From a virus (taxonomy: Duplodnaviria > Heunggongvirae > Uroviricota > Caudoviricetes): 64,000 nt of DNA. How positions within the stretch are numbered: position 1 is the stretch's first letter; the number at the start of each line of letters is the position of its first letter. The DNA lies in the IMG/VR virus record IMGVR_UViG_3300024272_001997; one strand, given 5' to 3'. The notes beneath the pieces are model-generated. The model was given only the letters and a program-made list of their open reading frames with translations. It was not told where the DNA came from and searched no databases. Of the stretch, positions 2,888-54,374 are shown piece by piece. The position numbers and the translations under genes are program-made.

Positions 2888-3157
2888 TTAGAAACCTCCT
2901 GCGAAATTCAAACAGATGTGATGAAGGTGACGATTTTCGATCCAAGCGAAAGATACGGATGCGCCGGAATTATCGGGGTAGGGATCAACGATCTCATTCC
3001 ACTGGAAGAGAGGATCTTCATATTCCAAATTTTCAAAGTATTCTTCAACGACATGAAGGGCGTCTTTGGTATATTCTTTGGAAGACACAAGATGGTCTAC
3101 CTGCTCGCAGATGTTATATACTTCATCTTCAATAACAGACGGGGTGAAGCCTACCAT
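2888..3157 (-). CDS. hypothetical protein (89 aa), first gene of leftward operon
   Basis: Track ORF; GGAGGTAAAAGAATT-ATG RBS at 3166-3176. Confidence 0.6.
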   Translation of the reverse strand: MVGFTPSVIEDEVYNICEQVDHLVSSKEYTKDALHVVEEYFENLEYEDPLFQWNEIVDPYPDNSGASVSFAWIENRHLHHICLNFAGGF

Positions 3158-3188
3158 AATTCTTTTACCTCCTGGCGTATTATTCAGT

Positions 3189-3201
3189 CTTACTCAGTAA
3201 G
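3189..3201. promoter_or_regulatory. perfect 13-bp palindrome CTTACTCAGTAAG in 5' UTR of leftward operon (operator candidate)
   Basis: Self-complementary sequence read directly; loop too small for an RNA hairpin, so protein-binding site is more likely. Confidence 0.4.
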
Positions 3202-3293
3202 ATTTTGTATTACGCTCGGTACACGGAATTTTACTTTTCTGACGGAGCGCATTACCTTTTCTTTTACTATCTTTTCCTTTACTTTACATATAT

Positions 3294-3322
3294 ATTATAT
3301 CATAAAATTTTTACAAAATCAA
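3294..3322 (-). promoter_or_regulatory. sigma70-type promoter (class 2: TTGATT-17-TATAAT with T-rich spacer) for leftward operon
   Basis: Reverse complement reads TTGATTttgtaaaaattttatgaTATAAT. Confidence 0.5.
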
Positions 3323-3350
3323 TTAAGATACAATTAATTAGAATATAAAT

Positions 3351-3390
3351 GTAATACGTTGTAATACAGTGTAGGACAACGTAATACAAT
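3351..3390 (+). promoter_or_regulatory. three direct GTAATAC repeats (plus inverted copy at 3207-3213) overlapping putative rightward promoter TTGTAA-17-TAATAC; operator candidate
   Basis: TGTAATACGtTGTAATACAgtgtaggacaACGTAATACA; outer copies form an imperfect inverted repeat. Confidence 0.45.
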
Positions 3391-3431
3391 TTTTCTTTCC
3401 TAATTTTCAATAATCATACGGAGGTGATTAT

Positions 3432-3569
3432 ATGACCGTTATTACTGTAAGACTTGATGATATTGAAAAGCAATTATTACAGCAATATGCAGAAGATGAA
3501 GATCTATCTGTGTCATAGATTATAAGACGTCTAATAAAAGAATTTTTAGACGAGAAAGTTAGAAACTAA
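3432..3569 (+). CDS. ribbon-helix-helix (CopG/Arc/MetJ-like) DNA-binding protein, 45 aa, with in-frame TAG at 3516-3518
   Basis: GGAGGTG RBS 7 nt upstream; MTVITVRLDDIEKQLLQQYAEDEDLSVS[TAG]IIRRLIKEFLDEKVRN matches beta-strand/helix1/helix2 of the RHH fold; TAG falls where RHH proteins have E/Q (xSxS-E/Q-xIRxxI). Confidence 0.6.
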
Positions 3570-3584
3570 AAAGGAGCTTGTGAA

Positions 3585-3764
3585 ATGCCAAATTCAAAAG
3601 TAAAAATTGTATACTCTTTAAGAATCCATATTGGTTTACAACAATTAGGATTTTCTTATATAACAGAAATGAAGAATCCCAAGAATCCGCATCTGAATTG
3701 TTGGGTGTATCAAGAGACTCCCGCACTTCTGAAAGCGTTTGACTCCTTGGTAAAGGAGGGGTAA
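3585..3764 (+). CDS. hypothetical protein (59 aa)
   Basis: AAGGAG RBS 8 nt upstream of ATG; codon walk gives 60 codons ending TAA at 3762-3764; below the ORF-track length cut-off. Confidence 0.5.
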   Translation: MPNSKVKIVYSLRIHIGLQQLGFSYITEMKNPKNPHLNCWVYQETPALLKAFDSLVKEG

Positions 3765-4153
3765 TGATGAGCGCTATTGAAACATTTGTGGTTCACAAAG
3801 AATGGTTAGATAGTATTGCTGGATTACCCTGTGAGACTCAGGATAGAATCATTGCGGAGTTCGTTCGATATGGCTGTGGACTGGACCCTGCGCACCCTGA
3901 GGACGCAATCGCGCAGTCTTTTGTGAATATTTTGAAAAATAGAATTGATTATAGTAAGGATCAATATGCAAAGAAAGTTGCAATGGGAAAAACTGCTGGG
4001 GCTAAGAAGAAAATTGATGACAGACAAATTTATGAGTTGGCGCAAGAAGGAAAAACTGCAACTGAAATTGCAACAATTTTGAATATATCTAAATCTTCTG
4101 TTGACCACAGTGATGGTTGGAGAAAGAGAAGAGAAAACGAATTTGTATTTTGA
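3764..4153 (+). CDS. helix-turn-helix DNA-binding protein (129 aa)
   Basis: Track ORF; AAAGGAGGGG RBS; C-terminal segment IYELAQEGKTATEIATILNISKSSV resembles sigma region 4 / LuxR-type HTH. Confidence 0.65.
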   Translation: MMSAIETFVVHKEWLDSIAGLPCETQDRIIAEFVRYGCGLDPAHPEDAIAQSFVNILKNRIDYSKDQYAKKVAMGKTAGAKKKIDDRQIYELAQEGKTATEIATILNISKSSVDHSDGWRKRRENEFVF

Positions 4154-4154
4154 T

Positions 4155-4313
4155 TTGCAAAATTTGTTGCAAAGTTGCAAAAATTGTAACAATATATTCG
4201 TGCAAAGTTTGCATTTTGCATTGCATTGTACAAATCTAACTTATAACTTACAAATGCAACAATTTTGCAAATTGAATTGCAATTTTGCAACTTAATTTTT
4301 GCAATAAATTGCA
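4155..4313. repeat. array of at least 9 perfect and about 6 variant TTGCAA palindromic hexamers at roughly 9-12 bp spacing (iteron array)
   Basis: Perfect copies start near 4155, 4167, 4175, 4265, 4276, 4285, 4297, 4308; variants TTGTAA, TTGCAT, ATGCAA between; lies immediately after the HTH gene stop. Confidence 0.8.
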
Positions 4314-4322
4314 AAAATTTTA

Positions 4323-4344
4323 GGGGACCCCTCCGGGGATCCCC
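4323..4344. other. GC-rich hairpin GGGGACCCCtccGGGGATCCCC (9-bp GC stem, one bulge)
   Basis: Read from sequence; not followed by a U-tract on either strand. Confidence 0.4.
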
Positions 4345-4366
4345 ATCATAAAGGAGATAATGGAGA

Positions 4367-4594
4367 ATGATATATCAAAGACCGAAAGGTAATGTAAGAT
4401 TTGCTTATGGTAGATTTGATGATTTACCATATGGAGCCGAAGAAGTAAAGATATTTATGGTACCTGGGGATCCAGTATTATATGTAGTACCAATTGGAGA
4501 TATTCCATATGCGTATGAGAAAAATGAACCAGAAATTCCAATGTCAGATAGGCAGTGTGAGGAGTTATTGGATTATTTTAGAGAGTACGTATAA
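4367..4594 (+). CDS. hypothetical protein (75 aa)
   Basis: Track ORF; AAGGAG at 4351-4356. Confidence 0.55.
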   Translation: MIYQRPKGNVRFAYGRFDDLPYGAEEVKIFMVPGDPVLYVVPIGDIPYAYEKNEPEIPMSDRQCEELLDYFREYV

Positions 4595-4601
4595 TCTTTA
4601 T

Positions 4602-4630
4602 TTGATTTTATAAAAAAATATTGTTATAAT
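4602..4630 (+). promoter_or_regulatory. sigma70-type promoter TTGATT-17-TATAAT
   Basis: TTGATTttataaaaaaatattgtTATAAT; a second candidate (TTGGAT-16-TATAAT) lies at 4568-4595. Confidence 0.45.
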
Positions 4631-4665
4631 TATTATAGTATAAAAGAAAAGGTGGAAAAGGTTAT

Positions 4666-4830
4666 ATGATGCTTGTAGATGAAGGTTATCTTCATGACAA
4701 TACTATCGTGCGCATCGGGGAAGAGATGGGAATCTTTAGAAAACCCGATGAAAGCAAAGTAGAATATGTCATGAGGGTCATTCAAGAACTTCAATTCAAA
4801 AAGCCCTATGTAGGGGTATTCAAAAAATGA
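4666..4830 (+). CDS. hypothetical protein (54 aa)
   Basis: AAAAGGTGGAAAAGG RBS; 55 codons to TGA at 4828-4830; below ORF-track cut-off. Confidence 0.4.
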   Translation: MMLVDEGYLHDNTIVRIGEEMGIFRKPDESKVEYVMRVIQELQFKKPYVGVFKK

Positions 4831-4887
4831 ATTGAAAAAATGAAATGAAAACCGAGGAACAAAATAAAAAATGAAATGAAAATCCGA
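4822..4887 (+). repeat. three tandem copies of AAAAAATGAA(A/T)TGAAAA (start-stop mini-ORFs) in leader of 4905 gene
   Basis: Copies at about 4822, 4835, 4866; last two extend to ...AAAA(C/T)CCGA. Confidence 0.5.
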
Positions 4888-4904
4888 TTGAAAGGAAAAG
4901 TAAA

Positions 4905-5360
4905 ATGGTTTTTAGCTATAATAATTTAATGTCTGCCGCAAAGTCTGGTCAGAGACTTGGTAAGTGGAAGGATTTGCCGGTCTTTTCTTGTGATAGAATG
5001 GGACTGGCGCAAAAAGGCAATGGTGCTTATTATGTCGTCTATGATGATGACAATGCTTTCGTGAAGAAGAGCGGTTCTATGTGGTTCAGATTTGGTTATC
5101 TGGATAAGGAAGGCTCTGTTCATGAGGACACTAAGCGAGAATATTTCCCCATCCGCACAGAGAAGGACAAGGAAGTCTTCTATTATAATGAGAAGAAAGC
5201 TACAGTGGAGTTTGCGCCTGTACCGACCGTACATACTACTGCTTCTTCTGGAACTACGACTGCGGATGTGAAACTGGAGATTGACGTTGAGGGAACCTTG
5301 AAGAAGGCGAGGGAAATGACTATTGAAGATTTGCTCGCAGGATTCAACTACGGACTCTAA
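4905..5360 (+). CDS. hypothetical protein (151 aa)
   Basis: Track ORF, GAAAGGAAAAG RBS. Confidence 0.6.
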   Translation: MVFSYNNLMSAAKSGQRLGKWKDLPVFSCDRMGLAQKGNGAYYVVYDDDNAFVKKSGSMWFRFGYLDKEGSVHEDTKREYFPIRTEKDKEVFYYNEKKATVEFAPVPTVHTTASSGTTTADVKLEIDVEGTLKKAREMTIEDLLAGFNYGL

Positions 5361-5453
5361 GTGGACTCGCTTCTGGAATAAAGTATTTCCGATCGTTGAG
5401 TGGTTAGAAGATTTGGGGGAGCTTATTGTGCTCTTGGATGATATATTTGATTA

Positions 5454-5479
5454 AGGAGGACTTCGGTCCTCCTTTTTTT
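5454..5479 (+). terminator. rho-independent terminator
   Basis: AGGAGGActtcgGTCCTCCT followed by TTTTTTT. Confidence 0.7.
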
Positions 5480-5571
5480 GTTGCTTTTGGAAGAGAATTG
5501 TGAGATTGTTCTGGCCGATCGGCCCCTGGACTATCCGATCGCTTTTCCTCGTCACCGTTACCGTTGGGGCA

Positions 5572-5606
5572 TAAAAAAATCCACCCTCATTTTCAGAGGG
5601 TGGGTT
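5572..5606 (-). terminator. rho-independent terminator for gene 5693..6160
   Basis: Minus strand reads CCCACCCTctgaaaatGAGGGTGG followed by ATTTTTTT. Confidence 0.65.
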
Positions 5607-23664: not shown

Positions 23665-24864
23665 ATGGCCCAAGAATCTTATTACTGTGAAAAATGTAAT
23701 AGAACAATGGCGGCCGACCAGTTCTACGGTACTAATAATTTAGAAAAATATCCTGATGGTAAATTGCGCATTTGTAAGAAATGTATGACAATGCACGTAG
23801 ACAATTTCAATCCGGATACTTATTTATGGATTTTACAAGAATGCGATGTTCCATATATTCCAGAAGAATGGAATAAATTATTGGCATCATATGGTAAAGA
23901 CCGCAGTAAACTGACTGGTCTGTCAATTATTGGTAGATATCTATCAAAAATGAAATTGAAGCAATTCCGAGATTATCGCTGGGAACACACCGAGCATCTT
24001 CAAGAAGTTGCGAATAAGAAAATTGAAGAGACGATGAAGCGTCAAGGATATGACGCAGTTGAAATCGCTCAAGCTGTCGCTCAGGCGACTGTCCCCGTCC
24101 CGCAGGGCATCATCGAACAACCAAAGTATGAAGAACCTAATCCATTCTTGGCATCTGGTGAAGAAGATTATTTTTCAGAGCAAAATGGTGGTCAAGATGA
24201 CTTTGTTGATGATTTGACTGAAGAGGATAAAACCTATTTGCGTTTGAAATGGGGAAAAACTTATAAACCCGAAGAATGGGTTCGATTAGAACAGCTATAT
24301 GAAGAAATGATGGCATCATATGATATTCAAGGTGCCGGACACATCGATACACTAAAATTGGTATGTAAGACATCTCTAAAGGCGAATCAATTAATCGACA
24401 TTGGCGATATTGAAGGCTTCCAAAAGATGAGCAAAGTTTATGATAGTTTGATGAAGTCTGGTAAGTTCACCGCACAACAGAATAAAGCTGAAAGTGGTGA
24501 CTTCGTTGATTCAATTGGCGAACTAATTGAAATGTGCGAAAAACAAGGATATATTGAAAGATATTATATTGAATCTCCAAAAGATAGAGTTGATATGACA
24601 ATTGCGGATATGCAGAGATATACTAAAACTCTGGTTGAAGAAGAAACCAATTTGTCAATCATGGTTGAAAAGGCTCTACGTGATATTGAGAAAGAAGATA
24701 AGGCTGAAGCTGAAAATACTGAAGATACAATTATCGATGATATTGATTTGAGTCTTGAGGATTTGGAAAAGACCTTGAAAGATCAAGATTATGTGGATTT
24801 CCAAGACTTCTTAGATGAAGAAGCTGAAGCTGACTCTGATTACTTGAATCGAGGTAGACGGTAA
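23665..24864 (+). CDS. hypothetical protein (399 aa), N-terminal zinc ribbon, acidic C-terminus; possible small terminase or DNA-packaging accessory
   Basis: Track ORF, no TAG; sits immediately upstream of terL with ATG overlapping TAA (TAATG). Confidence 0.55.
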   Translation: MAQESYYCEKCNRTMAADQFYGTNNLEKYPDGKLRICKKCMTMHVDNFNPDTYLWILQECDVPYIPEEWNKLLASYGKDRSKLTGLSIIGRYLSKMKLKQFRDYRWEHTEHLQEVANKKIEETMKRQGYDAVEIAQAVAQATVPVPQGIIEQPKYEEPNPFLASGEEDYFSEQNGGQDDFVDDLTEEDKTYLRLKWGKTYKPEEWVRLEQLYEEMMASYDIQGAGHIDTLKLVCKTSLKANQLIDIGDIEGFQKMSKVYDSLMKSGKFTAQQNKAESGDFVDSIGELIEMCEKQGYIERYYIESPKDRVDMTIADMQRYTKTLVEEETNLSIMVEKALRDIEKEDKAEAENTEDTIIDDIDLSLEDLEKTLKDQDYVDFQDFLDEEAEADSDYLNRGRR

Positions 24865-26603
24865 TGGCTTTACAAGATTTACTTGATTTATCAACATCCC
24901 GGAGAAAGATTGGTCTTTCTCCGGAACGTGTTGAGGCTGTTATGCCTACAATACGAAAGTACATAGCCTTTTGGAGAGAATATCCTGATTTATTCGTTGA
25001 CTTTATGGTACGTGGAACTAGTACCGAAGTAAAAGATGGAGAATTCTGTTTTTATTTCTATCAAAGAGTTTTCCTTCGTTGCGTTATGAGATATTAGTAT
25101 GTGTATGCGGTTTTTCCTCGTGCATATTCTAAATCTTTCTTGACTGTTATGGCATTGATGTGCCGTTGTATTTTATATCCCAATGCTCACTTGTTTGTCA
25201 CTTCTGGTGGTAAGGAGCAGGGTGCTTCTATTCTACAAAGTAAAGTAGAAGAAATTTGTAAATTGATTCCCAGCTTTGAAAGAGAAATTGACTGGGGACG
25301 AGGTAAGACTTTAACTGGTAAAGATAAAGTCCGATATGTATTTAAGAATGGTTCTGTTCTGGATAACCTTGCGGCCCGTGAATCTACGCGTGGTCAGCGT
25401 CGTCATGGCGGCGTAATGGAGGAATGTGTTGGTATTGATGACCAAATCCTTCGCGAAGTTATTATCCCTGTTATGGCTATCTCTCGTCGTGCGAAAGATG
25501 GTACTACTAATGAAAAAGAACCTTTGAATAAATCTCAGATTTATATTACAACTGCTGGATATAAAGGAACTTATCCATATGATAGATTGATTGGTTTCTT
25601 GGTTCGTATGGTCACTCAGCCCGATCGCTGTATTGTGCTTGGTGGTACTTGGAGAACGCCAGTGGCAATGGGATTACAGAGTAAAACATTCATTACCGAC
25701 CAGAAGAATGAAGGTACTTATAATGAAGCCTCTTTCGAGCGTGAGTATGAGTCTAAGTGGTCTGGTACTGTTGAAGATGCATTCTTCAATGGAGAACATT
25801 TTACTCGTAATAGAAAATTATTACAACCTGAATATGAACATTCCGGAAGGTCTGCGGCCGGCGCTTATTATGTGCTATCAGTCGACGTAGGTCGTAAGGG
25901 ATGTGATTCTGTTGTTTGTGTATTCAAGGTGACGCCGCAGGCGCAAGGCCCTGCTATCAAGTCTTTGGTAAATATTTATACAATGGCTGATGAACACTTT
26001 GAAGATCAAGCAATTAAGCTGAAAAAACTGTTCTATAAGTATAAAGCTAGAACTCTCGTAATCGACGGTAATGGTGTTGGTTTGGGTCTAATTGATTATA
26101 TGATTAAATCTTAGAATGATGAAAATGGAGACTTCTATCCTGACTTTGGCGTTCAAAACGACGATGAAGGTTATTATAAAAAGTATAGAACAGCTAATAC
26201 TGAATATGATGCTATGTATATTATCAAGGCAAATGCGCCAATCAATACAGAGTGTCACGCAAACGCACAAAGCCAACTTGCGGCCGGTAAGGTAAAATTC
26301 TTGATTGATGAAAGAACAGCAAGAGAAAAATTACTGGGAACCGCAAAAGGTTAGAAAATGAAGCCTGAGGAAAGGGCAGAATACCTTCAACCATTTACCC
26401 TAACTTCCATATTGAAAGAGGAAATGATGAATTTGCGTGAAGAAAATGAAGGCATAAATATCATTTTGAAACAAGCAAATCGTGGAATTAGGAAGGATAA
26501 GTTTTCTGCGTTTGAATATGGTTTGTATTATATAAAACAAGAAGAAGATAAAAAGAAGAAGAAAAAGAGATTTAACGCTGCTGATTGGGCGTTTTATAAT
26601 TAA
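24864..26603 (+). CDS. terL: terminase large subunit (about 579 aa) with 3 in-frame TAG codons (25098, 26112, 26352)
   Basis: Three same-frame track ORFs joined by TAG; N-terminal ATPase-like region (VFPRAYSKSF) and C-terminal RNaseH-like nuclease (YYVLSVDVGRKG...LVIDGNGVG). Confidence 0.7.
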
Positions 26604-39283: not shown

Positions 39284-42200
39284 ATGGCTAAACAGTTAAA
39301 TGTAGATTTGCGATTTACGGCAAGTAATACACAAGCTAAACAGCAAATCCAAGATTTACAAAGTGCTTTAAATAATTTAATGACTACTGCAAGTAAAAAT
39401 ACCACAGGCCTTGGTATTACTAAAGATATAGCTTAGGCAACTAATGAAGTCGCTAAATTATAGGCAATGTTAGAGTCTTCTAAAAATGCATCTGGTGGTT
39501 TAGATTTAGGTAAATTTAATCAGAGCTTAAGTTAGGGACAAACAAAAATTTCTGATTATGCCAGAACTCTAAGTTCTTTAGGTCCATAGGGAGATCAAGC
39601 TTTTGCTAAATTAGCAAAAGCAATTATTAACGCTGAAGTTCCTTTAAAAAGAACAAATAGTGTATTAAAAGAATTTAAAACTTCTCTTATGAATACTGCT
39701 AGATGGCAATTGTCTTCTAGTATGTTACATGGTTTTATGGGAGCGGTACAATCTGCCTATGGTTACGCGCAAGATTTAAATGAATCTTTAAATAATATTC
39801 GTATTGTTACTGGAGCAAATATTGATGAAATGTCACGATTTGCAAAAGAAGCTAATGCGGCAGCTTAGGCTTTAAGCACAACTACTACAGAATATACTAA
39901 CGCTTCTTTGATTTTTTATCAATAGGGTTTAAGTGATGAAGAAGTTGCCAAGAGAACAGAAGTAACTGTAAAAATGGCAAATGCCGCAGGTGAAAGTGCT
40001 TAGAAAATTTCTGATCAATTAACTGCTGTTTGGAATAACTTCTATGACGGTTCCAAATCTTTGGAATATTATGCTGATGTTATGACTGCTCTTGGTGCAG
40101 CAACTGCATCTAGTACTGATGAAATTGCAGGCGGTTTAGAAAAGTTTGCGGCAATTGGTTAGACTATTGGTTTAAGTTATGAATATGCTGCTTCTGCATT
40201 AGCAACTATTACTTCTAACACTCGTCAAAGTGAAGAAGTTGTTGGTACTGCATTAAAAACTATTTTTGCACGTATTCAAGGTTTAAATTTAGGTGAAACT
40301 CTTGAAGATGGAACTTCTTTAAATAAATATTCAGAAGCTTTATCAAAAATTGGAATTAGCATTTTTGAGTAGAATGGCGAAATCAAAAAGATGGATAACA
40401 TTCTAAATGAAATGGCTGAAAAATGGGGAACTTTAGCGAAGGATCAACAAATTGCTTTAGCATAGACTGTTGCTGGCGTTCGTCAATATACTTAGCTAAT
40501 TGCTTTAATGGATAACTGGAATGCTGGAGATTCTGATAGTATGACAGCTAACTTAAATACTGCTTATAATGCCACTGGCACTTTACAAGAACAAGCAGAT
40601 ATTTATGCAGAATCTTGGGAAGCTGCAAAAGATAGAGTTACTGCAGCGGCAGAAGAAATTTATAACCAATTATTGAACGATGAATTTTTTATTGATTTAA
40701 ATAATGGTTTTGCAGGTTTCTTAAATATTATCTCTGATACTATCGACACTCTTGGTGGATTACCTGGAGTACTTACTGTTGCATCTAGCCTCATGATTAA
40801 AATGTTTGGTAAAGATATGGCAAAAGCGATTGATGATTGGGGATATAATATTAAATTGCGCTCTAAAGAGGGCGTTTAGTCTTTAATGGAGCTTAGAGAG
40901 CAAGCAAAAAATTCTTTAAAAACAATGTATGCAGATAATGTAGACACTGGTCCTATAAATTCTGCATCTCAAATTGCTTTCAGTGAATATGCTTCTTTAA
41001 CAGATGTAGTATTAGCAAAACAAAAAGAATTAACTGCTCAAGGTTAGATGCTTTCAGAAGAAAATCAAAAGCAAGTTCAATATTTATTACAAGCAAATGA
41101 AGCATATGGAGAGCAAGCAATTCTTGCTGCAAAATCTTTAGAGGCAGCTGAACAGTAGACTCGAGAAAATGAGATGCAATTAAGATATGCTGTTTAGAAG
41201 CAAAATACAAAAAATCCTGAAGACAAAAAAGTTGATTTTAAAACAACTTTAAAACCTCAGATTGATGAAGCTCAAAAAGCTTAGATGTAGTATTCTTCTT
41301 TGTATGATGTTTTTTTGAAATTAAAACAATTACAAAATAAAGGTTTAGATAGTGCAACAATAATTAAAGAACTGACTGAAATGAGTAATTAGGCTAAAGC
41401 GGCAGGCCTTGATATTTCACATTTTGATGCCATTTTACACTCTTTAAATAACGGAGATAGCGTAGTAGTTACTTTAAATGCAATTGAAAGCAATTTAGAT
41501 GATCTTGCATTGGAAGCTTTAAATACTGCAGAAACTGTTAAAAATTCTTTAACTGGAATGGGAATGGATGGCACTCAAGTTGATGCAATTCTTGATTAGT
41601 TAATTGAATCTTGGAGACAGCAAGGTATTGTTACTGCGGATTTAGCAGAAAAATTAAAAAATATAAAAGTTAATGGAGATGCTGCGGCAGAAGCTATTAG
41701 TGGAATGCAAGGTCCTCCACCAACTGTCGGCCAGAAATTTATGGCAGTTGCAAATACAATTAGTAATATTGCTATGAGTATTAATGTAGTAAAAGGATTA
41801 ATTGATACTTGGAATAATGAAGATATGAGTTTTGGAGAGAAATTACTTTCCACTTTTACATCTCTTGGAATGGTTATTCCAATGGTTACAACTGCTTTTA
41901 CTGGAAACAATCTTGCAATGTTAGGTAGTGTTTCTTCTTCTATTGTTGCAGCAGCAGGTTTTGATGGTGTTGCTATTTCTGCAAAAGTTGCTGCAGGTGG
42001 TGTTGGAGCATTGTGGGCAGCTTTATGGCCTATTGCATTAGTAGTTGCAGGCTTGACGTTAGTAATTACTGCATTAGCAGCTGGAGTAAAATATTTATCT
42101 GATGAATATAATAAAGATGCTATTGCTGCTAACAAAGCTGCTGAAGCAGCAAATAATTTGAAAGAAGCATATGAAGAAACTAAGAAATCTTATGAAGATA

Positions 42201-45200
42201 TGATTTCTGCTATGGAAAATTATCAAAGTGCTAGAGACAGTCTTGATAATTTAACTAAGGGTACTGAAGCATATCGAGATGCCTTAAACGGAGCGAATGA
42301 AGCAGCTTTACAATTAATTAAAGCTGGTAATTTGATTCGTGGAGAAGATTACGATATTGTCGGTGGAGAAATCATTATTAAACAAGAATCAATTGATGCG
42401 GCTAAAGAAAATCAATATGGAAAAGTTCAAGAAGCATATGCTGCAAGTACAATGGCAAATGCAAATGCTAGTCGTTTAAAAGCTGAGGCAGATCAAACTA
42501 AACTTACTCGAACTGATGATAAATCTATTTGGTAGGGCGTAGTTGAAGGTATGGTCACAGGAATGGCTGCAATGATGATTACTGGTAATGCTCCAGCAGT
42601 TTTAGCAGGTGCATTAACGGGTGGAGTTGTTGGAGCTATTGATACTGCTCTTATAAATAAAGCTAGTAATGAAGCACAACAAAAACAAATTGATGATTTA
42701 GTAGCTCTTTATGATGAAATGGGAGAAGCTGCTTTTGATTCTGTAGAACTTCAAAAATTAGGCATTGATACTGCTAATGAAGAATATATTAATTCTTTAA
42801 AAGAAATTGTTCGTGCTACCCATCAGGCTGCAGAAGAAATGGAAGTCGCCGCTGAGTTAGCCGCAACCTCTATTTTGAGTCAAGATGAGCGTTTTGCAAA
42901 GTCTCAAGATAGTGAAGAATTATATGCAGCAAGTGGAGAAATATATAATAAATTATATCAAGATAATTTAAAAAAATATCAAGAAGTTGATATTGCCAAT
43001 TGGGTAGGAGCTGGAACTGAAGATGCTAAAGATTTATGGAATAAATATTTAGAGGCTTCTGGCTTAGACGAACTAAGAGGAATTAAAGCCACCAATTTTA
43101 GAAAAGATAATACTGTTGACTATGAGTATTATGATGAAGAGGGTAAGAAGCAAGAAGCTAATGTTGATTTGGCTACAATGGCTGCGGCAGTTGCAGCTGC
43201 AGAAGCAAATAATTTATTAGCTGATTCAGCAAATGTATTACTAGGAATATTTAATGAATTAAATAATTCTGGTAATGAAGCTGCTTAGGCATTAAAAAAT
43301 ATTATCGCTTATGAAAATGTTGAAAAATCAACTAGAGCTGAGTTTGATGATTTAAAAAATGAATATGAATCAGCAGAAGATAAAACTGCTTATTTAAATG
43401 AAGCTTTTGGTGGTGCTGATGGTGTTATTGATGAAGCTGAATTAAAGGCTTTGGGGTATGATTCCATAGAAGCTTTATAGGCAGGAATTGAATAGGCCAT
43501 TGAAGATGGTGAAGATGCTTGGGATGATGTTGGTAAACATTTAACTAGCACTGCAAAAAAAGCATTTAAAAATTCTATGGATTCTGGTATTTTTGATGAT
43601 TTGACTTTAGAACAAACTAATCAAATGGCAGATCTCTTCCAAGATGCTTTCGCCAAGGGTGGAGTTGAAGGTTTAGATTCTCTATAGAATAGTTTAAATG
43701 TAATGTTTGAGAAGTCTGGTCAAGATGCTGGAAAAATGGCTGCAATCTTAGCAAATGTTGATTGGCAAACTACTAATATTGAAGATTTAACTGCAATTTT
43801 AGAAGACGCAGGCATTGAAACTGATGGTTTTGCTAATGAGCTAGAAAACTTAATAGACTTAATGCAAGAGGGTCAAAACATTGGTTTTGACGGTGCGGCC
43901 GATATTTATAAAACTGCTCATGAGATTATTGATGATCTTAAAACTGGAGATACTATTTCTAGTGAAGATTATGATAATCTTAAAACTATGGGCATTAATA
44001 TGTCTGACTATTTTGTTCAAATGGCAGATGGGTCTTATAAATTAACTGCTGATGCAAAAGAATTCTATGATGTTGTTAATGCTAAAACTTTAGAACAATT
44101 CCAAAATAATATTGACGCTTTACGCGGTCAAAAAGCAGATGTAAATAATTTACAAAATAGTACCTATGATAAGGATTCTATTGCTACAATGGATACTAAT
44201 ATGATAGGTATGATTAAACAAGATAATGATAAATTAGGAGATCAATTAACTTTCTTAAAAGCAATTGGTTCTGATTTAGAAAATCTTGATAGCTATATTC
44301 AAGAGATTGAAGCTGGTAGACAATTAACCCAACGTCAATTAAGAGAAATTCGCAACGAACTTGAAGAAAATGCTTGGCAATGGGATAATTTATCTCAAGT
44401 AACTGAAGGGTTTGATGCAGAAATCCAACGTAATATGGATGCATATGCTATGTCTGCAACTACAGTTGGAGATTTAAATGATATGCTTCGCGAAGGATTA
44501 ATTAATGCTGAAGCATATAATAAAGCAATTGAATCCGTAATGGATGTGGAATTTGAGGCTGAAGGGTTAGATGTAGAAGCCGCTAATGATGTAGCAGATG
44601 CTTTCCGTGAAATGGCAGATGCTGGTGAAGCAGGCACAGAAGCTTTAAAAGACAATGAAGAAGCTGTTAAAGATGCTACTGTTCGTTATATGGAACTTAA
44701 CGAAGCTATTACTGATATTTATGATAATTATGATGATTATATAGATGTTTTAAAAGCAGCAAGAAAAGCTTCAACTCCTTTAGAAAAAGCTAACCTATTA
44801 AATGAAAAATCTGCTAGATCTTTAAGAACTTCTTTGGCAGGTTTGCTTGGCACTACAGAAGATTTAATTGATGCAGATTTAATGGCAGCAATTAATCCAG
44901 CAGATTTCGAAGCAGCTGCAAACGGTAGTGTTGAAGCTATTGATAGAATTAGAGAGGCTTTTATAAAATTATAGATTGAAGGTATTGATGGAATTACACT
45001 TGATGGCTTAATGGCTGAATTAAATGCATTTAATGATGGTGCTTATATTGATTTAGACAATATGCCAATGCTATGGTCTTTAATTGAAGCAAAGGTTGCC
45101 GCAGGTGCAACTGCAGCTGACATTGAAGCTTTGTTAAGTGGTTTGAACATCGATGCTGATGTTAGTGATTTCTATGGTACGATGGAAGAAATGGCAGCTA

Positions 45201-48200
45201 TTGCAGAGCAAGCTGGTTCTCGTGTAGTACAAGCTACTTCTTTCTCTCAAACATCAACGACTGAAACTGAAGCTACTCCACGTACAGTTGATAATGTAAA
45301 TTTCACTGAAACTGTTACAACTACTAATCATCCGTCTATTGCGGCAGTGCCTATGACAAATGGTTTTGGACCATTAATTTATGGTACTAATATGGTTAGT
45401 TATTAGAAGTCTGTAAGTGTTGATCCAGTAAGTTATCAAACTCAAGATACTGCAACTGCTACTGAAGTTGTCACTGAGAACGCTGCGGGTGAAGAAGGTA
45501 AAGTTCGTGGTATTTAGATAAATGGTGCTCATAAAGCTCCAACTGCTTCTAGAACTCCAAGTCCAACTAATACAACCAGAAAACCTGTATCATCAGGCAG
45601 TGGCGGTGGTGGTAGTAGTGGTAGTAAAGCAAAAGAACCTTCTAAACCAAAATAGATGGATACCACTAAACAAACTGATGTAGTAAAAAGATATAAAGAA
45701 ATTGATGATGCGCTTGATGATTTATCTGATGAATATGATAGAGCTTCTAAATCTGCAGATAGATTATGGGGCGAACATCGTTTAGATGCTCTTCGTGAAC
45801 AAAATGCTTTAATTGAAGAGTAGCAAGAATTGTTAGCTGAAAAATAGCGTCAAGCAGAACGCTATATGAAACAAGATCAAGTTGCTTTACAATAGGCTGC
45901 AGCTGCAGCGGGATTAGCCTTCTCATTTGATGATAAAGGTAATATTACTAATTACACTGACTAGATGACTGTCCTTTATAATCAGTTAGCTGCCGCAGAA
46001 TCTCGTTACAATTCTCTTGCTACTGGTGAAGCTCAAGAGTCTTATGAAGAAACTATTCTTGACCCTCTAAAAAATAAGATCCAAAACATTGAAGATGCAA
46101 TGGAGTTATACGAAGAGAGTAAAGAATTATTTGAAGAATTGGGTATTAACATTGAAGATCTTCAAGATTAGATTATGCAAAATAATTATGATATTATAAT
46201 GGACGGTTTAGAGCTTCATATTGGTTTTAATGAAGAAGATTTAGAAATAATTAATTATTATTTATCTAAGATTGAAGATGATTTTTATTCTATGGCTGAA
46301 GCTGCTGCTTTAATAGCAAATCCAAAAGGAAATAGTCAATTGACTGAGTATATTTCTAATTTAGAAGAATATGAATCTTCTCTTCAAGGATTAAATAAAG
46401 CTTATGTCGCAGGAGAAATTACTGAAGCAATGTATCAAGAAGGCTTAGAAGAAGTCCGTTCTGGTATTAGAGATAATTTAAGTTCTTTAGTTGAATTAGA
46501 TAATACTATGAAAGAGTATTATAGTAAAACTCTAAATATGGCCTAGGAAGAATTAGCGAAGTATACTGACCGTATGGAGCATCAAACTGAAGTTCTAGAA
46601 CATTATCAATCTTTAATGGAAATTCTTGGCAAAGAAACTGACTATAACGGTTTAGGAATTATTCTTGAAGGTCAAGCAAAAACTATTGAAAATCAAATGA
46701 AGGTTGCTAAAGAAGCATATGCTATGTATCAATCTGAAGCAGATGAAAAGAAGAAATTGCTTGATTAGGCTATTGCCACAGGAAATACTGAAGCTGCAGA
46801 AGTATATCAGAAAGAATGGGAAGCTGCTAATGCTGCTGCCATGGAAGCTCAACAAGATATGCTTGATAAAACTGAAGAGTGGGCTGATGCATTACGAGCA
46901 ATACTGGAGAATAAACTATCTGGTTTCGCTCAAAATTTAGAGAACGCTCTGACCGGAGGCACATCTTTTGATACTTTAACTACTTCTATGGAGCGAGCAG
47001 CTAGTCTACAAGAAGAATATTTAACAACGACTAACCAAATTTATGAGACTAATAAGTTGATGCGCGTTGCACAGCAAGCTATTGATAATTCCACTAGTAG
47101 TATTGCAAAGCAAAAACTAAAAGGATTTATTAATGAAACTAAGCAATTGCAAGATCAAACAAAGTTAAGTAAATACGAGTTAGAAATTCAGCAAGCAAAA
47201 TATAATTTATTATTGGCTGAGATGGCTCTAGAAGATGCTCGTGATGCGAAAACTGTTGTTAGATTAAAGCGTGATAATGAAGGCAATCTTGGTTATGTAT
47301 ATACCGCAGATCAAGATAAGTTGGCCGAAGCGCAACAAGAGTTAGAAGACGCACAAAATAGTTTATATAATATTGGATTGGAAGGCGCTAATGAATATAG
47401 TGAAAAGTATCAGCAAACCATGAGTGAAATGTATGATACATTTACTGAACTCCAAGAGCAGTATTTGAGTGGTGAATTCGAAACTGAAGCTGAATATCAA
47501 GATGCTATGTTAAAAGCTAAGGAATATTATTATGAAAAATTGAAGAGTTATTCTTCTCTGCATCAAATAGCATTGACTACAGATAGTCGAGTCATTGCAG
47601 ATGCTTGGTCTTCTGATTATAGCGAAATGATTTTCAATACTGAAGATTGGATGCGCGCAGTTACTGAATATGTTGGTAATGTAAATCTTGCATTTGACGA
47701 ATGGGAAGAAAATGTTGATACTATTACTAATGAGACTCTTGGACCAAATCTTGATACTCTTGAAGATAACGTTAAAGATATTACAGATGCTAATGATGCT
47801 TTAACTGATTCTATCGTAAAAGATGGCGGCGTTATTGACGCTATTGAGTCTGAATTGGATCAAGTTAGTGAATTGACTGGTAAATACGCTAATTTAAGAC
47901 AATAGATTCAGGGACTGATTGCGGATCATGAAACTCTTATGGTACGTATTGGCAATGAACCTAATCCTTACACTCCTCCTGGAACTGGTACTTCTGGAAG
48001 TTCTTCTTCTAGCGGAGGTAGTAGTGGAAGTTCTAATTCTGGTAATTCTTCTAGTGGTAGTGGTCGAGGTTCTAGTACAGCAAGCACATCTTCTGGAACT
48101 AGTACTAAAGAAGCAAGTGCTCCAGAATATAGTGACACTACTAAGCAAGGAGTTGCTCTCGCAATTTGGAATGGTGGTTTTGGTTGGGGTAACGGTACTA

Positions 48201-48673
48201 CCCGCCGCAACCGGTTGGATGAAAAAGGATTTGATCCCGAAGAAATCCAGCGTATTGTTGATATTACTAATCCTAATGGAGATTGGCGTACTCGTTATGG
48301 AATTTCTGACTTAAGTAAGTATGCTTATTCTAGTTTTGATACTGGTGGTTATACTGGAGCTTGGGGTTCTTATGGTAAGTTCGCTATGTTACATGAAAAA
48401 GAATTGATTTTGAATCCAGGTGAAACTGAAAACTTTTTAGCAAGTATGGAAGTATTGCGTAGTATTATCAAGATGATTGACTTACAAAGCACTGCTTCTC
48501 AGCTAGGTGGATTGTTACATAGTCCTGGATATTACGCTCCTCAAACTTCTGAGGTATTAGAGCAAAATGTTCATATTGAAGCTAGCTTCCCTGAAGTAAC
48601 TGATAGATATGAAATTGAAGCTGCTTTGACTTCTATCGTCAATCGTGCTTCTCAATACGCTAACCGTAAATAA
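39284..48673 (+). CDS. tape measure protein, single 9390-nt frame (3129 aa) with at least 35 in-frame TAGs
   Basis: All 10 track ORF fragments (40508, 41705, 42551, 43703, 45011, 45965, 46175, 46574, 46841, 47939) share frame 2 with the ATG at 39284; no TAA/TGA for 9.4 kb; Ala/Gln/Leu-rich helical repeats; Ser/Gly linker at about 47990-48110 then a globular C-terminal domain. Confidence 0.8.
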
Positions 48674-48756: not shown

Positions 48757-48794
48757 GATATAATAGATTATAAGAGAGAAAGGAGATATTGGTT

Positions 48795-51700
48795 GTGGTA
48801 ATAGATTATGCTGAGGAACTGTTAAAAGCAGTTGATATAGTTGTAGAATAGCGTATTCGAAATATCCAAATGGATACTACAATTATTTGTACTGTTACTG
48901 ATAATACAGAAAAGAAAAGTGGCATATATCAGGTAACTGATGGTGCCGCAAAATTTACTGCCAAAACCGATGCCAATAGTAGATATTATAATGTCGGAGA
49001 TACTGTAAGAGTTCTTGCTATTAAAGGCGATTTGGGTAACTGTTATATTAGTGGTAAATATTCTTATAATGATGACAGTGATCCCTTAACTTATATTTCT
49101 CCATCTGAAACTGTTGTTGATATGACTGATAATCTGATTCCAGGTAAAGTAGATGCTTGGGGCATTACCGCAAATGGCGATGAAACTCAACTTCCTCTTT
49201 GGAGTGTAAATTTATCTAATTCAGATTATAAAGATTTACAAACTAACAGTATTTATAATACTCTTAATCTAAAGGCAGATTTTAAATGTCTTTTATCTAA
49301 TTATAAAATGAAAACAGGTACTTATGGTTTAATTTTACGATTAGATGTTAGACCAACAAATGATAATAGCCAAACAATTAGTCAATGGGTATCATTAGAT
49401 TCCACAGATATGTTTGGTAATCCATATGCATTTATGGTATATTCTACACAAGAAGCCACATTCGATATTTCTGGATTGGGCACAATTGAAAGTCTTCAAT
49501 TATTTTTATATCAAAATGATGATTTTGAATTTTATAATGATAAAGGTTTCCCTGAGCGGTTACCTGCGGTTGATTTCAGTAATATTCTTGTGAAGAATAT
49601 TTATTTGAGTTTTGGCTCAGATTTAACTAAAGTAGAAGATAATACTTTACAAATTTATACTGGCGATAGTGCTATTTATAATATTAGCGACGATGGTAGT
49701 AATTCTCGTGACATCGGATTGCTATGGTATAATAAAGACGAAGATAATACTTATATTGGTTTTAGTGATGGTATTTATGACCCCGGTTATGATGAAATTA
49801 CTTATTTAGAAATAAGTGAAGTTGATAGTCGTTTGGTCGCTCAAATGGGCAAGGACGTTCCTAATGATGAAATTGCATTAGGGATTTCAGCTGATATTGA
49901 AGAGGCTCAACCGATTTTCAAAAATCTTCGTAATGCTTTAACAAGAGATTTAAGAAATAACTTAACTTCTTATCGAGATTAGATTCAATCAATTGAGACT
50001 TTTAAAGACGATTTTGAACTTCTGTTATCTGAAATTTCAATTGTCGGTTAGCAAATTGAAGAAGATCAAAAAACTATGACAGAAGAATATGCTACAATTT
50101 TATCTGCGGCAAAAAAAATTCAAGATGGTATTGTTGTAGCTAAACCAAATCAAACTGTTACAATTGATAAGATAAAAGAAAAAGTAAATTCTGTTATTGG
50201 GGATACAGATGCTTTATTGTCAGCAACAGAGACTGAAATAAAAGATAAATATACTGGTTTTGTAAGTATATATGATACTTATGAGGCTCGTATTGAAAAA
50301 GTCAAAAAGTCAATTACTGGTTATATCGATCAGCTGAATGCATTATTAGCTGATGATGCCAATAAGATGGATGCTTTCTTCCTGCCAGGTTATAATTTTG
50401 AGCCTTATGGAAGAACTGATTTTAGTGAATATGATAATAAATACTGTATTTACTGGTATCGGTATGAACCTGGTTATGCTAACTTAGAAGAAAGATTCCT
50501 TGAAACAGGATGGCATAGATTATCAAAAAAATTAAATGTTGGATTGCCTTCTGCAAAACTAAGTGAAGATAGTATTTATAATGCTAAAAAAACATTAAAT
50601 CCAGAAGGAATTTTAGAAGTAGAATTAGATACTCAATACGTAGAAGAAAAATATATGGCAGTATTATTCTTTAATCATAATATGTATAAGAGTAATATTC
50701 TAACTTTTACAAATGCAAATCCTCCTGTAGATGAGAAGATTGTAGACTAGGCTGATGCTTGTCGCATTGAGCATGGAGATAACTCTCAACCTTCTTATCA
50801 AGTTTATGGATTAAATAACTTATTAGTAAATGCGGCCGATGGTTATCGTAAACGCGAACTGTTATTGCGCTATGAGGGCTTGACCGCAGGTGATGAAGCA
50901 TTATACGGAGCGCAGATTTTCTGGTACATTCCTAAAAATTCAACTATGTTGAAATATGAACTTGAAGATTTTGACAGTTCTTGGTCTAATGATGAAAAGG
51001 CTATGCCTGGAGTAACTTCTCCTTATTCTAAGACTGGTTATGTATGCTTCTATAAAACAATCGGTGGTACAGAAAGCACTGACGAAGATGGAAAAGTTCA
51101 TTATGAAATTGCAAATCGAGACAGATATTTTACATACCGCATAAAAGATTATTATTCTCAAAGTTTTACAAATAATACAATTTATTGTAGAGTTGTAAAA
51201 CCTAATTATTATGACTGCAATGCAGAGATTTCTTTAATATTTAGTAGCTTTGGTACTTCTGGAACAGATTATACTTTAGTAATTTCTCCTAATACCGCAA
51301 AAGCTGCGGCAGATGGTGTATTAGAAGATGGAGCTAATCTTCCTCTTGGTCTGGCATTATATGATTATGATAATAATCGAATTAAGATTTTGGATAGTGC
51401 TCCGGCAGTTGATAATCCAGATCCATACTTAGCAAGTTTAGAATGGATTGGTCCTACTGGATATTATGCCGCACCAGTCTACAATAGTGATCCTAAAGGA
51501 TATGGTGTTGAAAGAATTAATATCACCTTAAAAGAGAGCGAAGGTCCATTGCAAAAATACTATAATGGTATTTTGAAAGCGACAGTCCCTTACCCTATTG
51601 ATGAATTAGGTGAAATTATCAATTTAATTTCTATTTATACTGTTCCTTATACAGCTGGAAATTATTATATTGAAGGTCCTGGTATTGTAGTTTATAACTC

Positions 51701-54374
51701 TGATGGAGTTAATCCTACTTATTATAAAAATCCATATAAGATTTTTAGACGTAAGGAAGAAACTGATGCTGATGGTAATGTAATCCATGAAGCTGATTCT
51801 GAAGTTACTGGTGTAACTTGGAAGATTATGTATTATAAAGAAAATGGCGATATTATGACTGCCACAGATTGGGGTCAATCACAATATGCTGTTTTACAAA
51901 GTTATATGCCTAAATTGAATGAGCGAAATTGCTTGATTCCTTGTCATATTTTCTTAGAAAATAATGGTGGTACAATGGTTTATCCAGTTGTTACTTGTGA
52001 AGATGAGGATGCAGTAGTAATTTGGGCTCAGCCAATTTATTGTATGAAAAATAGATACGCTTCTGCTATGATCAATAAATGGGACGGTAGTCTAGTTATT
52101 GATGAAGAGAATGGAACTATTATGTCTACTATGGTAGGTGCGGGCCGCAAGAACTCAGAAAACCAATTTGAAGGTGTTTTACTGGGCGATGTAAATACCG
52201 CCTCTGAAGATAATGCTACTGGCGTAGGCTTATATGGTTTCCACAAAGGAGCGCAAAGCTTTAATTTCAATGTTGATGGTACTGCTTTTATCGGTAAATC
52301 TGGTAGAGGTAGAATCAAGTTTGATGGAAATACAGGTACTATTACAAGTGCTTCGTATGAACAAGCAAAAGATTCTTCTGGAATGAAAATTGATTTAGAT
52401 GATGGTATCATTGACATGAAAGGAGATAAAATTGATGCTACTACTGGTAAGTATGTAGCAGATACTGCAAGTCATATTCATATTGATGTAAAAAGTCCTT
52501 ATTTCAAGATTGATAGTGTTAAAGGTAAAACTTTAATGTTTATCGGCGGAGAGAAAGAAGGATATTATTTACAATCTGACGAATATAATGAAACAAAATT
52601 TACTTTGAATGAGACTGAATCTAATGGCTTAACTACACCAACTACTGATACTACTGGTACCGGTATGCGATTGGATTTAAAAAATGGTACATTAGATGCA
52701 TTTGATTTTTATTTAACTTCAAAGAATGTAATGTTAAATTCAAAAGATTCAAGTAAACCTTATTTTGTTATTAAAGATAATTGTAACAATATGCTTATGC
52801 ATATTGGTGGTACTAAGTTCTGGCTAAAATCTGCTGATTATAGTGAGACTGCAGCTGGTGAACCTGAATCTGGTATGAAAATTGATTTATCTACTGGTAA
52901 AATTGATGCTTTTAATTTTTCATTAGTTTCTAGTAGAGTTAAATTGAGTACTAGCGGAACAGTAACAAAACCTTATTTAGAAATTGTTGGTAATGATATA
53001 ACTTTAATGCATATTTCTGAAGCGGGACAATATATTCGTTCTAATACTTTTATTCGAGAGGCTGCTGGTACTCCTGGAACAGGTATGGAAATTAATCTTG
53101 GTACTGGAGAATTTACAGCTTATACATTTAATTTAAAAGCTGGTAATGCTTCTACTGGTCAATTAAGAATTGATAGTAGTGCCGCACAATATCCTTTGTG
53201 GATAGGTACAATTGATAAAACCTATGATCCTGAAAATGATGATCCAGAAGATATAATTCCTAATTTTAAAGTTGATTGGGCCGGCAATTTTTATTCACAA
53301 GGTGGTAAATTTACCGGAGCAATTCATGCAACTAGCGGTACTCTTGGTAGTTTAACTGTTAGTGGTGTTTTGACAGGTGGTACTATTTCAGGTGCTACTA
53401 TTGAAGGTGGCGTGTTAAAAGTAGGTCCAACCTCAGGAGAAACTGGTTATCAGTTATATGCTGATAACAAAGAGGTTGTAATTAAAAATGCAAAAATTAT
53501 AAATTGTGATATTTAGAGCGGCGATGGAGCTCCCACAGGTACTGGTGGATTTAGTGTCACTCCAGCGGGTATTATGAAAGGTTTTGGTTGTAGTTTAACA
53601 AATGGATCTTTTACCACTTGTACTGTAATTGATTCTTTATATATCGGAGGAACTGTGGATGGAAAGACCGTTTCTGGCAATATTTATTTAAATGGTAATA
53701 ATAAAATATATTTTGGTTCTGGTACTGGTAATTATTTATATTTTTCAGATGATGGTCGTGTTTCAGTAAGTGCTTTAACGGCTTTTTATGCTAATAAAAT
53801 AAATGCTTCAAAAATAACTGCTTATCAAATTGTTGGTGCGCTAGAATCGAATGGCATGGAAGACTATAATACTCAAGTGTTATTTACTTCAGGAGCAAAA
53901 GTAAAAGGTCATTATTTATCAGCAGAAAATTCTTCTGGAGCTTTACTATTTTCAGCAGGTGATAATACCGCTGGTTTATATGCTAGTAGCGTTTATTTAG
54001 GTGGTACTAAGACCGCTTCTGTTAATGTAGCAGATGGTAATGGTAGTGTTGTAAGCTTAGAGGCATATATAAAATCAATAATAAAAGATAGCGTTACAGT
54101 ATCTGTGACTTCTGGAGCTAGTGATACAACAGTAACTGGTGGAACAGATGGGGTTTATACAGTAACAACAACAGATAATAAAACTGTTACAGCATCTTAG
54201 ACAATTTGTTGTTATACATATACACAACCTTCTGGAGGTTATTTTTCTACTACTGAAACAGCTGGTAGTCCGCCATCAGGTTCTTACTATACTTATTGTA
54301 CTAAAGATAAATCTCAAACAAAAGATGTTTCAACTTCTGGTACAATTCAAGTAGCTGTTACTATTAAAGATTAA
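48795..54374 (+). CDS. giant distal tail / baseplate-fibre protein (about 1860 aa; GTG start at 48795 or ATG at 48870) with about 5 in-frame TAGs
   Basis: Track ORFs 48870, 50076, 50865, 53574 all frame 0; no TAA/TGA until 54372-54374. Confidence 0.5.

Follow-up and report, generated by a model that had tools for sequence, protein, structure and literature searches.

Short repeats bound by a protein that is encoded in cis are a classical kind of element. The O gene of phage lambda carries its origin inside it. In satellite phage P4, ori and crr contain octamer repeats that lie in both orientations at irregular spacing and are bound by the alpha replication protein. The R1 parC site bound by ParR, the heptads bound by omega of pSM19035 and the RepC iterons of pAD1 each consist of at least 10 short repeats, divided into two clusters around a promoter core. 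Plasmid pMV158 encodes CopG, a 45-aa RHH protein, together with RepB, and has a double-strand origin made of direct repeats and a hairpin. Phage SPP1 has direct repeats together with an AT-rich unwinding element, its oriL lying inside gene 38 (PMC6316719).

Here we describe an array of the hexamer TTGCAA that directly follows the gene for a 129-aa DNA-binding protein in a large tailed phage, and compare it with these systems. The particulars of the locus have not been described before. They include an unusual domain combination in the protein, a 6-bp palindrome whose copy number is very high and differs between loci, and the setting in an abundant clade of uncultivated, TAG-recoded phages. Throughout, the window means the whole 64-kb stretch of phage DNA that was analyzed, and L numbers designate related loci.

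The array and its operon

The array sits in a small + strand island (3432-5360), flanked on either side by a block of small early genes on the − strand. The features of the locus, in order, are:

3347..3391, no strand assigned: operator-like element with AATGTAATAC-type repeats of period 10 and a palindrome containing GTAGGACAA
3432..3569, + strand: gene for a 45-aa CopG-type RHH protein that opens the operon (DUF6290, E 5.5e-10; RHH_1, E 4e-7; both above cut-off)
3585..3764, + strand: 59-aa ORF, conserved in relatives (58-64 aa), whose stop overlaps the next start (TAATG)
3764..4153, + strand: gene for the 129-aa DNA-binding protein, with DUF6291 at about residues 7-82, the basic arm AGAKKKIDD and a three-helix HTH
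4155..4226, no strand assigned: left array, with TTGCAA three times, then TTGTAA, GTGCAA and three times TTGCAT
4226..4254, + strand: 29-bp core TTGTAC-AAATCTAACTTATAACT-TACAAA, with invariant columns in aligned loci
4254..4314, no strand assigned: right array, with ATGCAA and five times TTGCAA, alignable site by site with relatives
4323..4344, no strand assigned: GC-rich stem-loop of 9 pairs with one bulge, −16.7 kcal/mol
4367..4594, + strand: 75-aa gene with its RBS at 4351-4356, right past the hairpin

The 129-aa protein joins a DUF6291 domain (E 1.1e-8, above Pfam's cut-off) to a C-terminal HTH of the serine-recombinase (resolvase/Hin) type. The protein-family profile matches the DNA-binding domain of gamma-delta/Tn3 resolvase, minor-groove arm included, and weak similarities to sigma-70 region 4 and to LuxR-type HTH domains were seen as well. 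For the 59-aa ORF at 3585..3764 the family search gave no match. The 45-aa RHH protein has a weak RepB-RCR_reg match, and its gene is absent from the standard-code ORF listing because of a single in-frame TAG (3516-3518), read as Gln, where relatives carry CAG. The element at 3347-3391, upstream of the operon and separate from the TTGCAA array, is the probable autoregulatory operator of the RHH protein; a paired GT(A/C)GGACA motif is conserved just upstream of the RHH gene in L001 (~3600-3625), L009 (~3538-3556) and L010 (~3565-3585). The 75-aa gene at the other end is not kept across relatives, which have a GIY-YIG gene (L009) or long gaps (L001, L006 and L010) in this place.

The sequence-only reading had placed the array right behind a 129-aa HTH gene, and this is borne out: the first site begins 2 nt past the TGA stop codon (4151-4153), and the HTH was found at the C-terminus of the product. 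Its counts of at least 9 perfect TTGCAA and about 6 copies with one mismatch need revision. An exact search of 4155-4314 gives 8 perfect hexamers (4155, 4167, 4175, 4265, 4277, 4285, 4299 and 4309), and one-mismatch copies are indeed present and number 7 (TTGTAA at 4184, GTGCAA at 4200, TTGCAT at 4209, 4216 and 4221, TTACAA at 4248 and ATGCAA at 4254). Two TGCAA pairs in the 3' end of the gene (3966/3978 and 4056/4068) were left out of the site count and may be codons for conserved residues (E-I-A = GAA ATT GCA).

The resulting 15 sites in 160 bp are far over the chance level. Since the window as a whole contains 30 TTGCAA against ~34 expected, the signal lies in clustering and not in an overall excess. 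When the 64-kb window was simulated 100 times with a first-order Markov model, the densest 160 bp had 2 sites in 88 runs, 3 in 6, 1 in 5 and 4 in a single run, compared with 8 observed; simulations with the array's own dinucleotide composition gave a mean of 2.4 TTGCAA and a maximum of 9 over 5000 runs. No second cluster of the TTGCAA motif family was found in the 64-kb window, where the next best 80-bp stretch has 2 sites.

The helical-turn spacing claimed earlier holds only roughly. Among 139 sites tabulated from 9 loci, 42 intervals are 11-12 bp, which is the pooled mode, with minor peaks at 7-8 and 20-23 bp, and the logo of the pooled loci shows an extended repeat unit of about T4-GC-A5. 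Distances from TGCA to TGCA in the window are irregular, ranging from 5 to 33 bp (12, 8, 25, 9, 7, 5, 33, 11, 12, 8, 14 and 10). By AT content, the 100 bp from 4155 belong to the top ~5% of the window, and the array is not its most AT-rich segment. The least stable 100 bp inside 4100-4350 rank at about the 9th percentile for instability, and the pair of 100-bp stretches with the lowest stability in the window, at 3256 and 4566 (0.8 and 0.25 kb away), has a promoter-like look.

A promoter-like core and a hairpin

The two arms of the array flank a core (TTGnAnAnAnCTAnCTTATAnCTT; 20% GC) that does not vary among 8 aligned loci with protein identities as low as 50%. Its make-up is like that of a sigma-A promoter pointing right, with a -35 hexamer, a 17-nt spacer and a -10 hexamer, and the 17-nt 'spacer' is the most conserved noncoding sequence at the locus. 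Among 49 loci, the -35 position is occupied by TTGTAC (27), TTGCAA (11) or TTGCAG (7), and 30 have TACAAT as their -10 hexamer, the window's own copy being TACAAA. A repeated phage-specific promoter was rejected as an explanation of the core, which is unique in the 64-kb window. Searching 185,579 species genomes with the core pattern gave 11 matches, of which 10, about the estimated chance level, come without the gene and array; the eleventh is a phage contig binned with a Lachnospiraceae MAG, where gene and array are associated. On this outcome we rejected the core as a host attB or host-factor site. The core presumably also has some likeness to pC194-type nick sites; no HUH nuclease is found nearby.

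Folding confirmed the 9-bp GC hairpin that had been described as closing the array. An intrinsic terminator has a GC stem-loop followed by a U-run on the transcribed strand; the hairpin at 4323-4344 departs from this, as the T-run is absent on the + strand and the terminator scan flags only the − strand, with a weak T-run. In the relatives examined, the core is followed after ~36-80 nt by a stem-loop or palindrome whose sequence is unrelated, with a T-run in L004 only. The invariant promoter-like core, the CopG-type RHH gene of the operon and the difference between this hairpin and a canonical + strand terminator had all been missing from the sequence-only reading.

Conservation in gut phages

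We collected relatives by alignment-based searches of viral contigs, which yielded 53 non-redundant loci from gut-metagenome phage contigs of up to ~190-213 kb. At 44-100% protein identity, essentially all 53 have the same layout after the gene, in the order left array, core, right array and hairpin, often with a G-rich stretch as well. The left array ranges from ~4 sites (L035) to ~35, with more than 30 in L010, the right array has 3-6 sites, and totals run from ~10 to more than 40 sites per locus. In most loci, no 6-mer past the gene is more frequent than TTGCAA or its close variants. Absence of the array from close relatives, which the sequence-only reading had named as the observation to look for against it, was not seen: the array is kept in position in the 53 relatives. 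Homologues of 123-147 aa are common in gut metagenomes, and the protein family comprises 628 clusters, one of which occurs on 484 contigs. Near-identical DNA was not found among GenBank phages, and tblastn with the 129-aa protein found no homologues in phages and none on 72,556 plasmids.

Several further observations concern the surroundings of the locus. Five of ~13 full-size related contigs (~188-201 kb) end at most 8 kb from it, above the random-breakage expectation (loci concerned: L013, L017, L019, L021, L025, L063, L068, L081 and L089). The end points differ from contig to contig, on which ground we rejected physical genome ends at the array, and a pair of near-identical contigs of 197.57 kb has its breaks in different positions. 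The breaks could reflect a collapsed terminal repeat nearby or a poorly assembling hypervariable region. Some relatives have another tandem array about 1.5 kb past the gene (L019 4880-5010; L013 4740-4820), with a 20-bp unit, GGAATTCTATAAAATTTAGT, that is present five times in L019; behind this array comes a conserved GC-rich segment. In the window, 5500-5575 is likewise GC-rich (GGCCGATCGGCCCCTGG...) and lies between convergent terminators (5453-5474 and 5581-5603), and L035-L039 have similar GCCGATCGG elements. This downstream segment, which has no Rfam match, may be a small RNA or a site. Homing-endonuclease genes (GIY-YIG and HNH) lie beside the array in L009 (4715-5030) and L012 (3241-3807), and several are found in the late region of the window.

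Co-variation of the hexamer and the recognition helix

A few lineages have exchanged the hexamer. In L060 (66% protein identity), the right arm aligns with that of the window, and each orthologous TGCA is replaced by TACA or TGTA, giving TTACAA/TTGTAA sites while the spacers (CAATTTT and CTTAATTTTT) stay identical. This concerted switch with unchanged spacers points to a co-evolving binding protein. The sites are TTGTAT or TTGTAC in L090, and TTACAA or TTGTAA in L035, L039 and L011. More than 45 TTGCAA loci retain S-K-S-x-x-(D/N)-H-(S/N)-x-G-W in helix 3 of the HTH, and all four variant lineages show unusual residues within this helix or beside it (GKSTVEHSN, KKNTIQHKE, SKSTIDKSA and KDPSSITHN). 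The co-variation is not perfect, since the '-EHSNGW' helix-3 residues of L060 recur in L084, a TTGCAA locus, and L037 is mixed.

The other DNA-binding protein of the operon behaves differently, as the DNA-reading strand of the RHH protein varies freely across TTGCAA loci. We consider the RHH protein unlikely to read TTGCAA, given this variability among loci that share the motif and its own conserved GGACA operator. The co-variation of hexamer and helix 3, the variability of the RHH strand and the separate operator of the RHH protein together make the product of 3764..4153 the likely reader of the array, judged from sequence comparison. A resolvase-type HTH with a minor-groove arm also fits a unit composed of a hexamer plus an A-tract. 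The earlier proposal that the array is a binding platform for the adjacent protein is thus supported by the 53-locus conservation, the concerted hexamer change and the conserved recognition helix.

DUF6291 in replication proteins

A profile of the DUF6291 domain found 129 cluster representatives. Among 44 longer DUF6291 proteins (162-359 aa), 8 have C-terminal regions that match PHROGs named for replication (replication initiation protein, DnaD-like helicase loader, replication initiation O-like, primosomal protein and replisome organizer), and neighbors in annotated phages, found by tblastn and by BFVD structure comparison, bear the same replication names. In the cultured Riemerella phage CRP19, the DUF6291 gene has Erf/exonuclease genes on one side and a DnaB-like helicase-primase on the other, and short AT-rich direct repeats (AATGTAAATGATAAT and GATAGCAA) occur immediately 3' of the DUF6291-coding part (L054 3760-3830). 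An N/V/D-rich tract (NVNDNVNVNDN) comes right after the DUF6291 domain in 17 of the 44 long proteins, and the Riemerella DNA suggests that this tract is the protein-level shadow of AT-rich repeats. Repeats of the CRP19 type are candidate intragenic origins of DUF6291-type initiators. A full-text literature search returned no paper mentioning DUF6291, and a search for TTGCAA with iteron returned none either.

Possible functions of the array

Our tentative reading of 4155-4344 is an iteron-type phage replication origin platform. We rank it first because the array sits just past the part of the gene that encodes the DNA-binding portion, as in the DUF6291 relatives, lambda O and SPP1 gp38. Many copies of the 3764..4153 product would bind the TTGCAA hexamers, with the resolvase-type HTH presumably reading the hexamer in the major groove, the basic arm lying in the adjacent A/T tract, and a binding unit of about T4-GC-A5 recurring every 11-12 bp. 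Bound protein would coat, bend or wrap the phased A/T-tract DNA on either side of the 29-bp core, and the complex would act as an iteron-type replication origin with DUF6291 as its putative initiator module. The core might be a promoter-like or easily opened segment at which transcription or melting starts, and the stem-loop after the array could be an auxiliary structure.

Clustered repeated sites, here conserved in 53 loci, are a feature of iteron origins. The origin half of the earlier proposal gains indirect support from the kinship of DUF6291 with replisome organizers and initiators and from the repeats that lie 3' of the DUF6291 part in relatives. Several properties count against it. The spacing is irregular, with ~10 to more than 40 sites, compared with classical iterons of 17-22 bp. 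The 129-aa protein is without the C-terminal replisome-organizer/DnaD-like domain, which recruits the helicase loader, and no helicase, primase, polymerase or loader genes were found among the scanned ORFs of at least 55 aa in the 64-kb window. No TTATCCACA-like DnaA box (up to 1 mismatch) occurs in 3000-5000, and the whole window has such boxes at chance level; DnaA boxes are not obligatory for phage origins. GC skew in the 64-kb window tracks gene orientation and is uninformative on the origin. Duplex stability points both ways: the stretches of lowest stability at 3256 and 4566 lie within 0.9 kb of the array, one on each side, which favors an origin, and the array itself is neither the least stable nor the most AT-rich DNA of the window, which speaks against one. 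The promoter-like core also weighs against an origin, as a purely transcriptional role is possible.

Such a role would make the locus an operator array, in which the DUF6291-HTH protein, made from the upstream early operon, coats TTGCAA sites that flank and overlap a rightward sigma-A promoter in the core, shuts off or modulates this promoter and has no part in replication, as can be likened to ParR on R1 parC and omega on heptad arrays. Hexamers like -35 and -10 elements stand at 17-nt spacing in most of the 49 loci and both overlap array-type motifs, the + strand early-gene island also encodes an RHH autorepressor with its own operator, and the lineage at 50% identity goes down to ~10 sites, an operator-like number; the weak sigma-70 region 4 and LuxR-type HTH similarities fit as well. 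However, there is no conserved downstream target (the 75-aa gene here, GIY-YIG in L009), and L001, L006 and L010 have gaps of 150-250 bp with separate promoters. Up to 40 sites are too many for repression, an ordinary promoter does not need an invariant 17-nt 'spacer', and the -10 hexamer of the window, TACAAA, is without the key final T. With no other such operators in 64 kb and a domain whose kinship is with replication proteins, we regard an operator array, the main rival of the origin, as conceivable but doubtful. A global regulator with dispersed operators was rejected, as the window has no other clusters. Less probable again, in our judgment, is a new phage cis-acting organizer, neither a classical origin nor an operator, in which a domain-swapped relative of initiators (DUF6291 joined to a resolvase-type arm and HTH) would polymerize on a rapidly expanding hexamer array around the invariant core, to control some genome-level event peculiar to these TAG-recoded ~200-kb phages while replication starts elsewhere, for example early-to-late (code-switch) timing, or control of genome ends or entry near the hard-to-assemble region.

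The remaining explanations fare worse. A partition centromere of the parC/parS kind, the second half of the earlier proposal, would couple the genome through protein-coated repeats to a segregation NTPase in a plasmid-prophage state. The anatomy of a partition system, a repeat centromere with a small adaptor nearby, is compatible with the locus, which has repeats beside the gene for a small DNA-binding protein, two clusters around a promoter-like core and, in the same operon, the gene for an RHH protein. Yet no NTPase of the ParA, ParM or TubZ type was found in the operon or in the 53 early-region and 51 late-region ORFs (scanned ORFs of at least 55 aa), we saw no integrase or plasmid-maintenance gene, none of 72,556 plasmids carries a homologue, the residues of the RHH strand do not follow the motif, and the relatives of DUF6291 are replication proteins; we therefore consider partition very unlikely and that half of the proposal unsupported. 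Even less credible is that the array has no dedicated binder and is either a curved A/T-tract upstream activating element or a 3'UTR or small RNA with UUGCAA repeats ending at the hairpin. Phased A/T tracts bend DNA, and T4-GC-A5 units every 11-12 bp are of the DNA-bending type; the array is also probably transcribed as the 3' end of the operon, and a stem-loop follows in the relatives examined, with a T-run in L004. What is conserved, however, is the hexamer and not the A-tract, and it switches in concert in L060. As for an RNA element, copy number varies 4-fold, and the hairpin sequences are unrelated, with mostly unremarkable z-scores and no conserved fold. Rfam gave no match at the gathering score and only chance-level ones (E ≥ 0.4) at a permissive threshold, and a tRNA scan found nothing. 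A packaging site of the pac/cos kind, which we hold to be about as improbable as partition, would make the protein a counterpart of the small terminase or an end-recognition factor, the clusters pacL/pacR or cosB and the core the cleavage site. The repeats-core-repeats layout parallels SPP1 pacL-pacC-pacR (PMC6316719), the protein has an HTH and the size of a small terminase while no small terminase was recognized in the window, and the ends of several full-size related contigs lie a few kb or less from the locus. Against this, the large terminase (~23.7-26.6 kb) is ~20 kb away in another transcription unit, none of the contigs of more than ~1 kb that were checked ends at the core and their ends scatter over internal positions, the near-identical 197.57-kb contigs are broken differently, as for circular or permuted assemblies, and the relatives of DUF6291 are not terminases.

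The phage and its genetic code

The window belongs to a large tailed phage. Its late half carries genes for terminase, portal, tape-measure and virion proteins, whose distant relatives are found in large siphophages of Bacillus, Lactococcus and Enterococcus and in the gut phage Phass-1. Strong Shine-Dalgarno sites suggest a Bacillota host; it is probably one of the Lachnospiraceae or another member of the Bacillota. The early − strand blocks (1-23600) encode a FolD-like enzyme, nucleoside 2-deoxyribosyltransferases, an HD-domain protein and a 5'-nucleotidase, which may hint at modified-nucleotide metabolism, as well as MazE/AbrB-like and Lar-like proteins, endonuclease VII and two phage sigma-factor homologues (phrog_5767), the last of which suggest phage-directed transcription. 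No replication or partition proteins were found among the scanned ORFs of these blocks.

The phage reads TAG as an amino acid, apparently Gln. Readthrough of TAG in 22568-63109 (e.g. 39284..48673, 48789..54374 and 24864..26603) fuses late ORFs into giant genes, with products of 3129 (36 TAG), 1861, 965 and 948 aa, together with a 579-aa ORF that spans the large-terminase match and a 532-aa ORF beside portal-type proteins. It is translation with the standard code that makes the terminase, portal and tape-measure matches look 'split'. TAGs are few in early genes. In L011, L022, L025/L089, L004/L056, L061 and L090, in-frame TAG replaces conserved Gln codons in the DUF6291-HTH gene or in genes next to it. 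The DUF6291-HTH gene of the window has no TAG, so that use of the recoded codon in the early operon varies between close relatives.

For uncultivated ~200-kb phages that read TAG as Gln, no origin, regulator or cis-element has been defined, and the protein family described here is abundant in human and animal gut metagenomes. The 129-aa protein and the 190-bp array form a compact pair, for which the natural variants TTGCAA, TTACAA and TTGTAT are ready controls. The locus also gives a first clue to the function of DUF6291, as the module on the origin side of phage replisome organizers. If the array is an origin, it would provide an anchor for peak-to-trough estimates of activity and for replicons or interference tools for these phages.

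Comparison with known systems

With gamma-delta/Tn3 resolvase and Hin, the 129-aa protein has only the C-terminal arm and HTH in common; as it is without the catalytic serine-recombinase domain, the array is not a res or hix site. P4 resembles the locus in its short motif, many copies and irregular spacing, but alpha, a large primase-helicase, has a DNA-binding domain of its own and no sequence or domain relation to the 129-aa protein. The centromere and operator arrays of plasmids likewise have a small DNA-binding protein encoded in cis that coats two clusters of short repeats around a promoter core, and the operon here includes an RHH protein. They differ in that no partner NTPase was found here, the likely reader is an HTH and not an RHH protein, the array is downstream of the gene, and the context is a phage. 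Compared with pMV158, there is no HUH/Rep nuclease and the genome is ~200 kb, while the order of elements is alike: a 45-aa CopG-family RHH protein opens the operon, followed by a replication-type protein, repeats, a conserved core and a hairpin.

The origins of lambda and SPP1 have 4-5 sites of ~18-20 bp, unlike the 6-bp palindrome repeated every 11-12 bp in 10-40+ copies that is found here. In contrast to both, the array lies outside the ORF with no helicase or loader genes adjacent, and the protein has a resolvase-type HTH in place of a C-terminal domain that recruits the helicase loader. What lambda O/ori-lambda and SPP1 gp38/oriL share with the locus is an arrangement of multiple sites for the initiator, here a putative one, in or beside its own gene and near AT-rich DNA, and DUF6291 itself takes the N-terminal position in proteins annotated as O-like or as replisome organizers.
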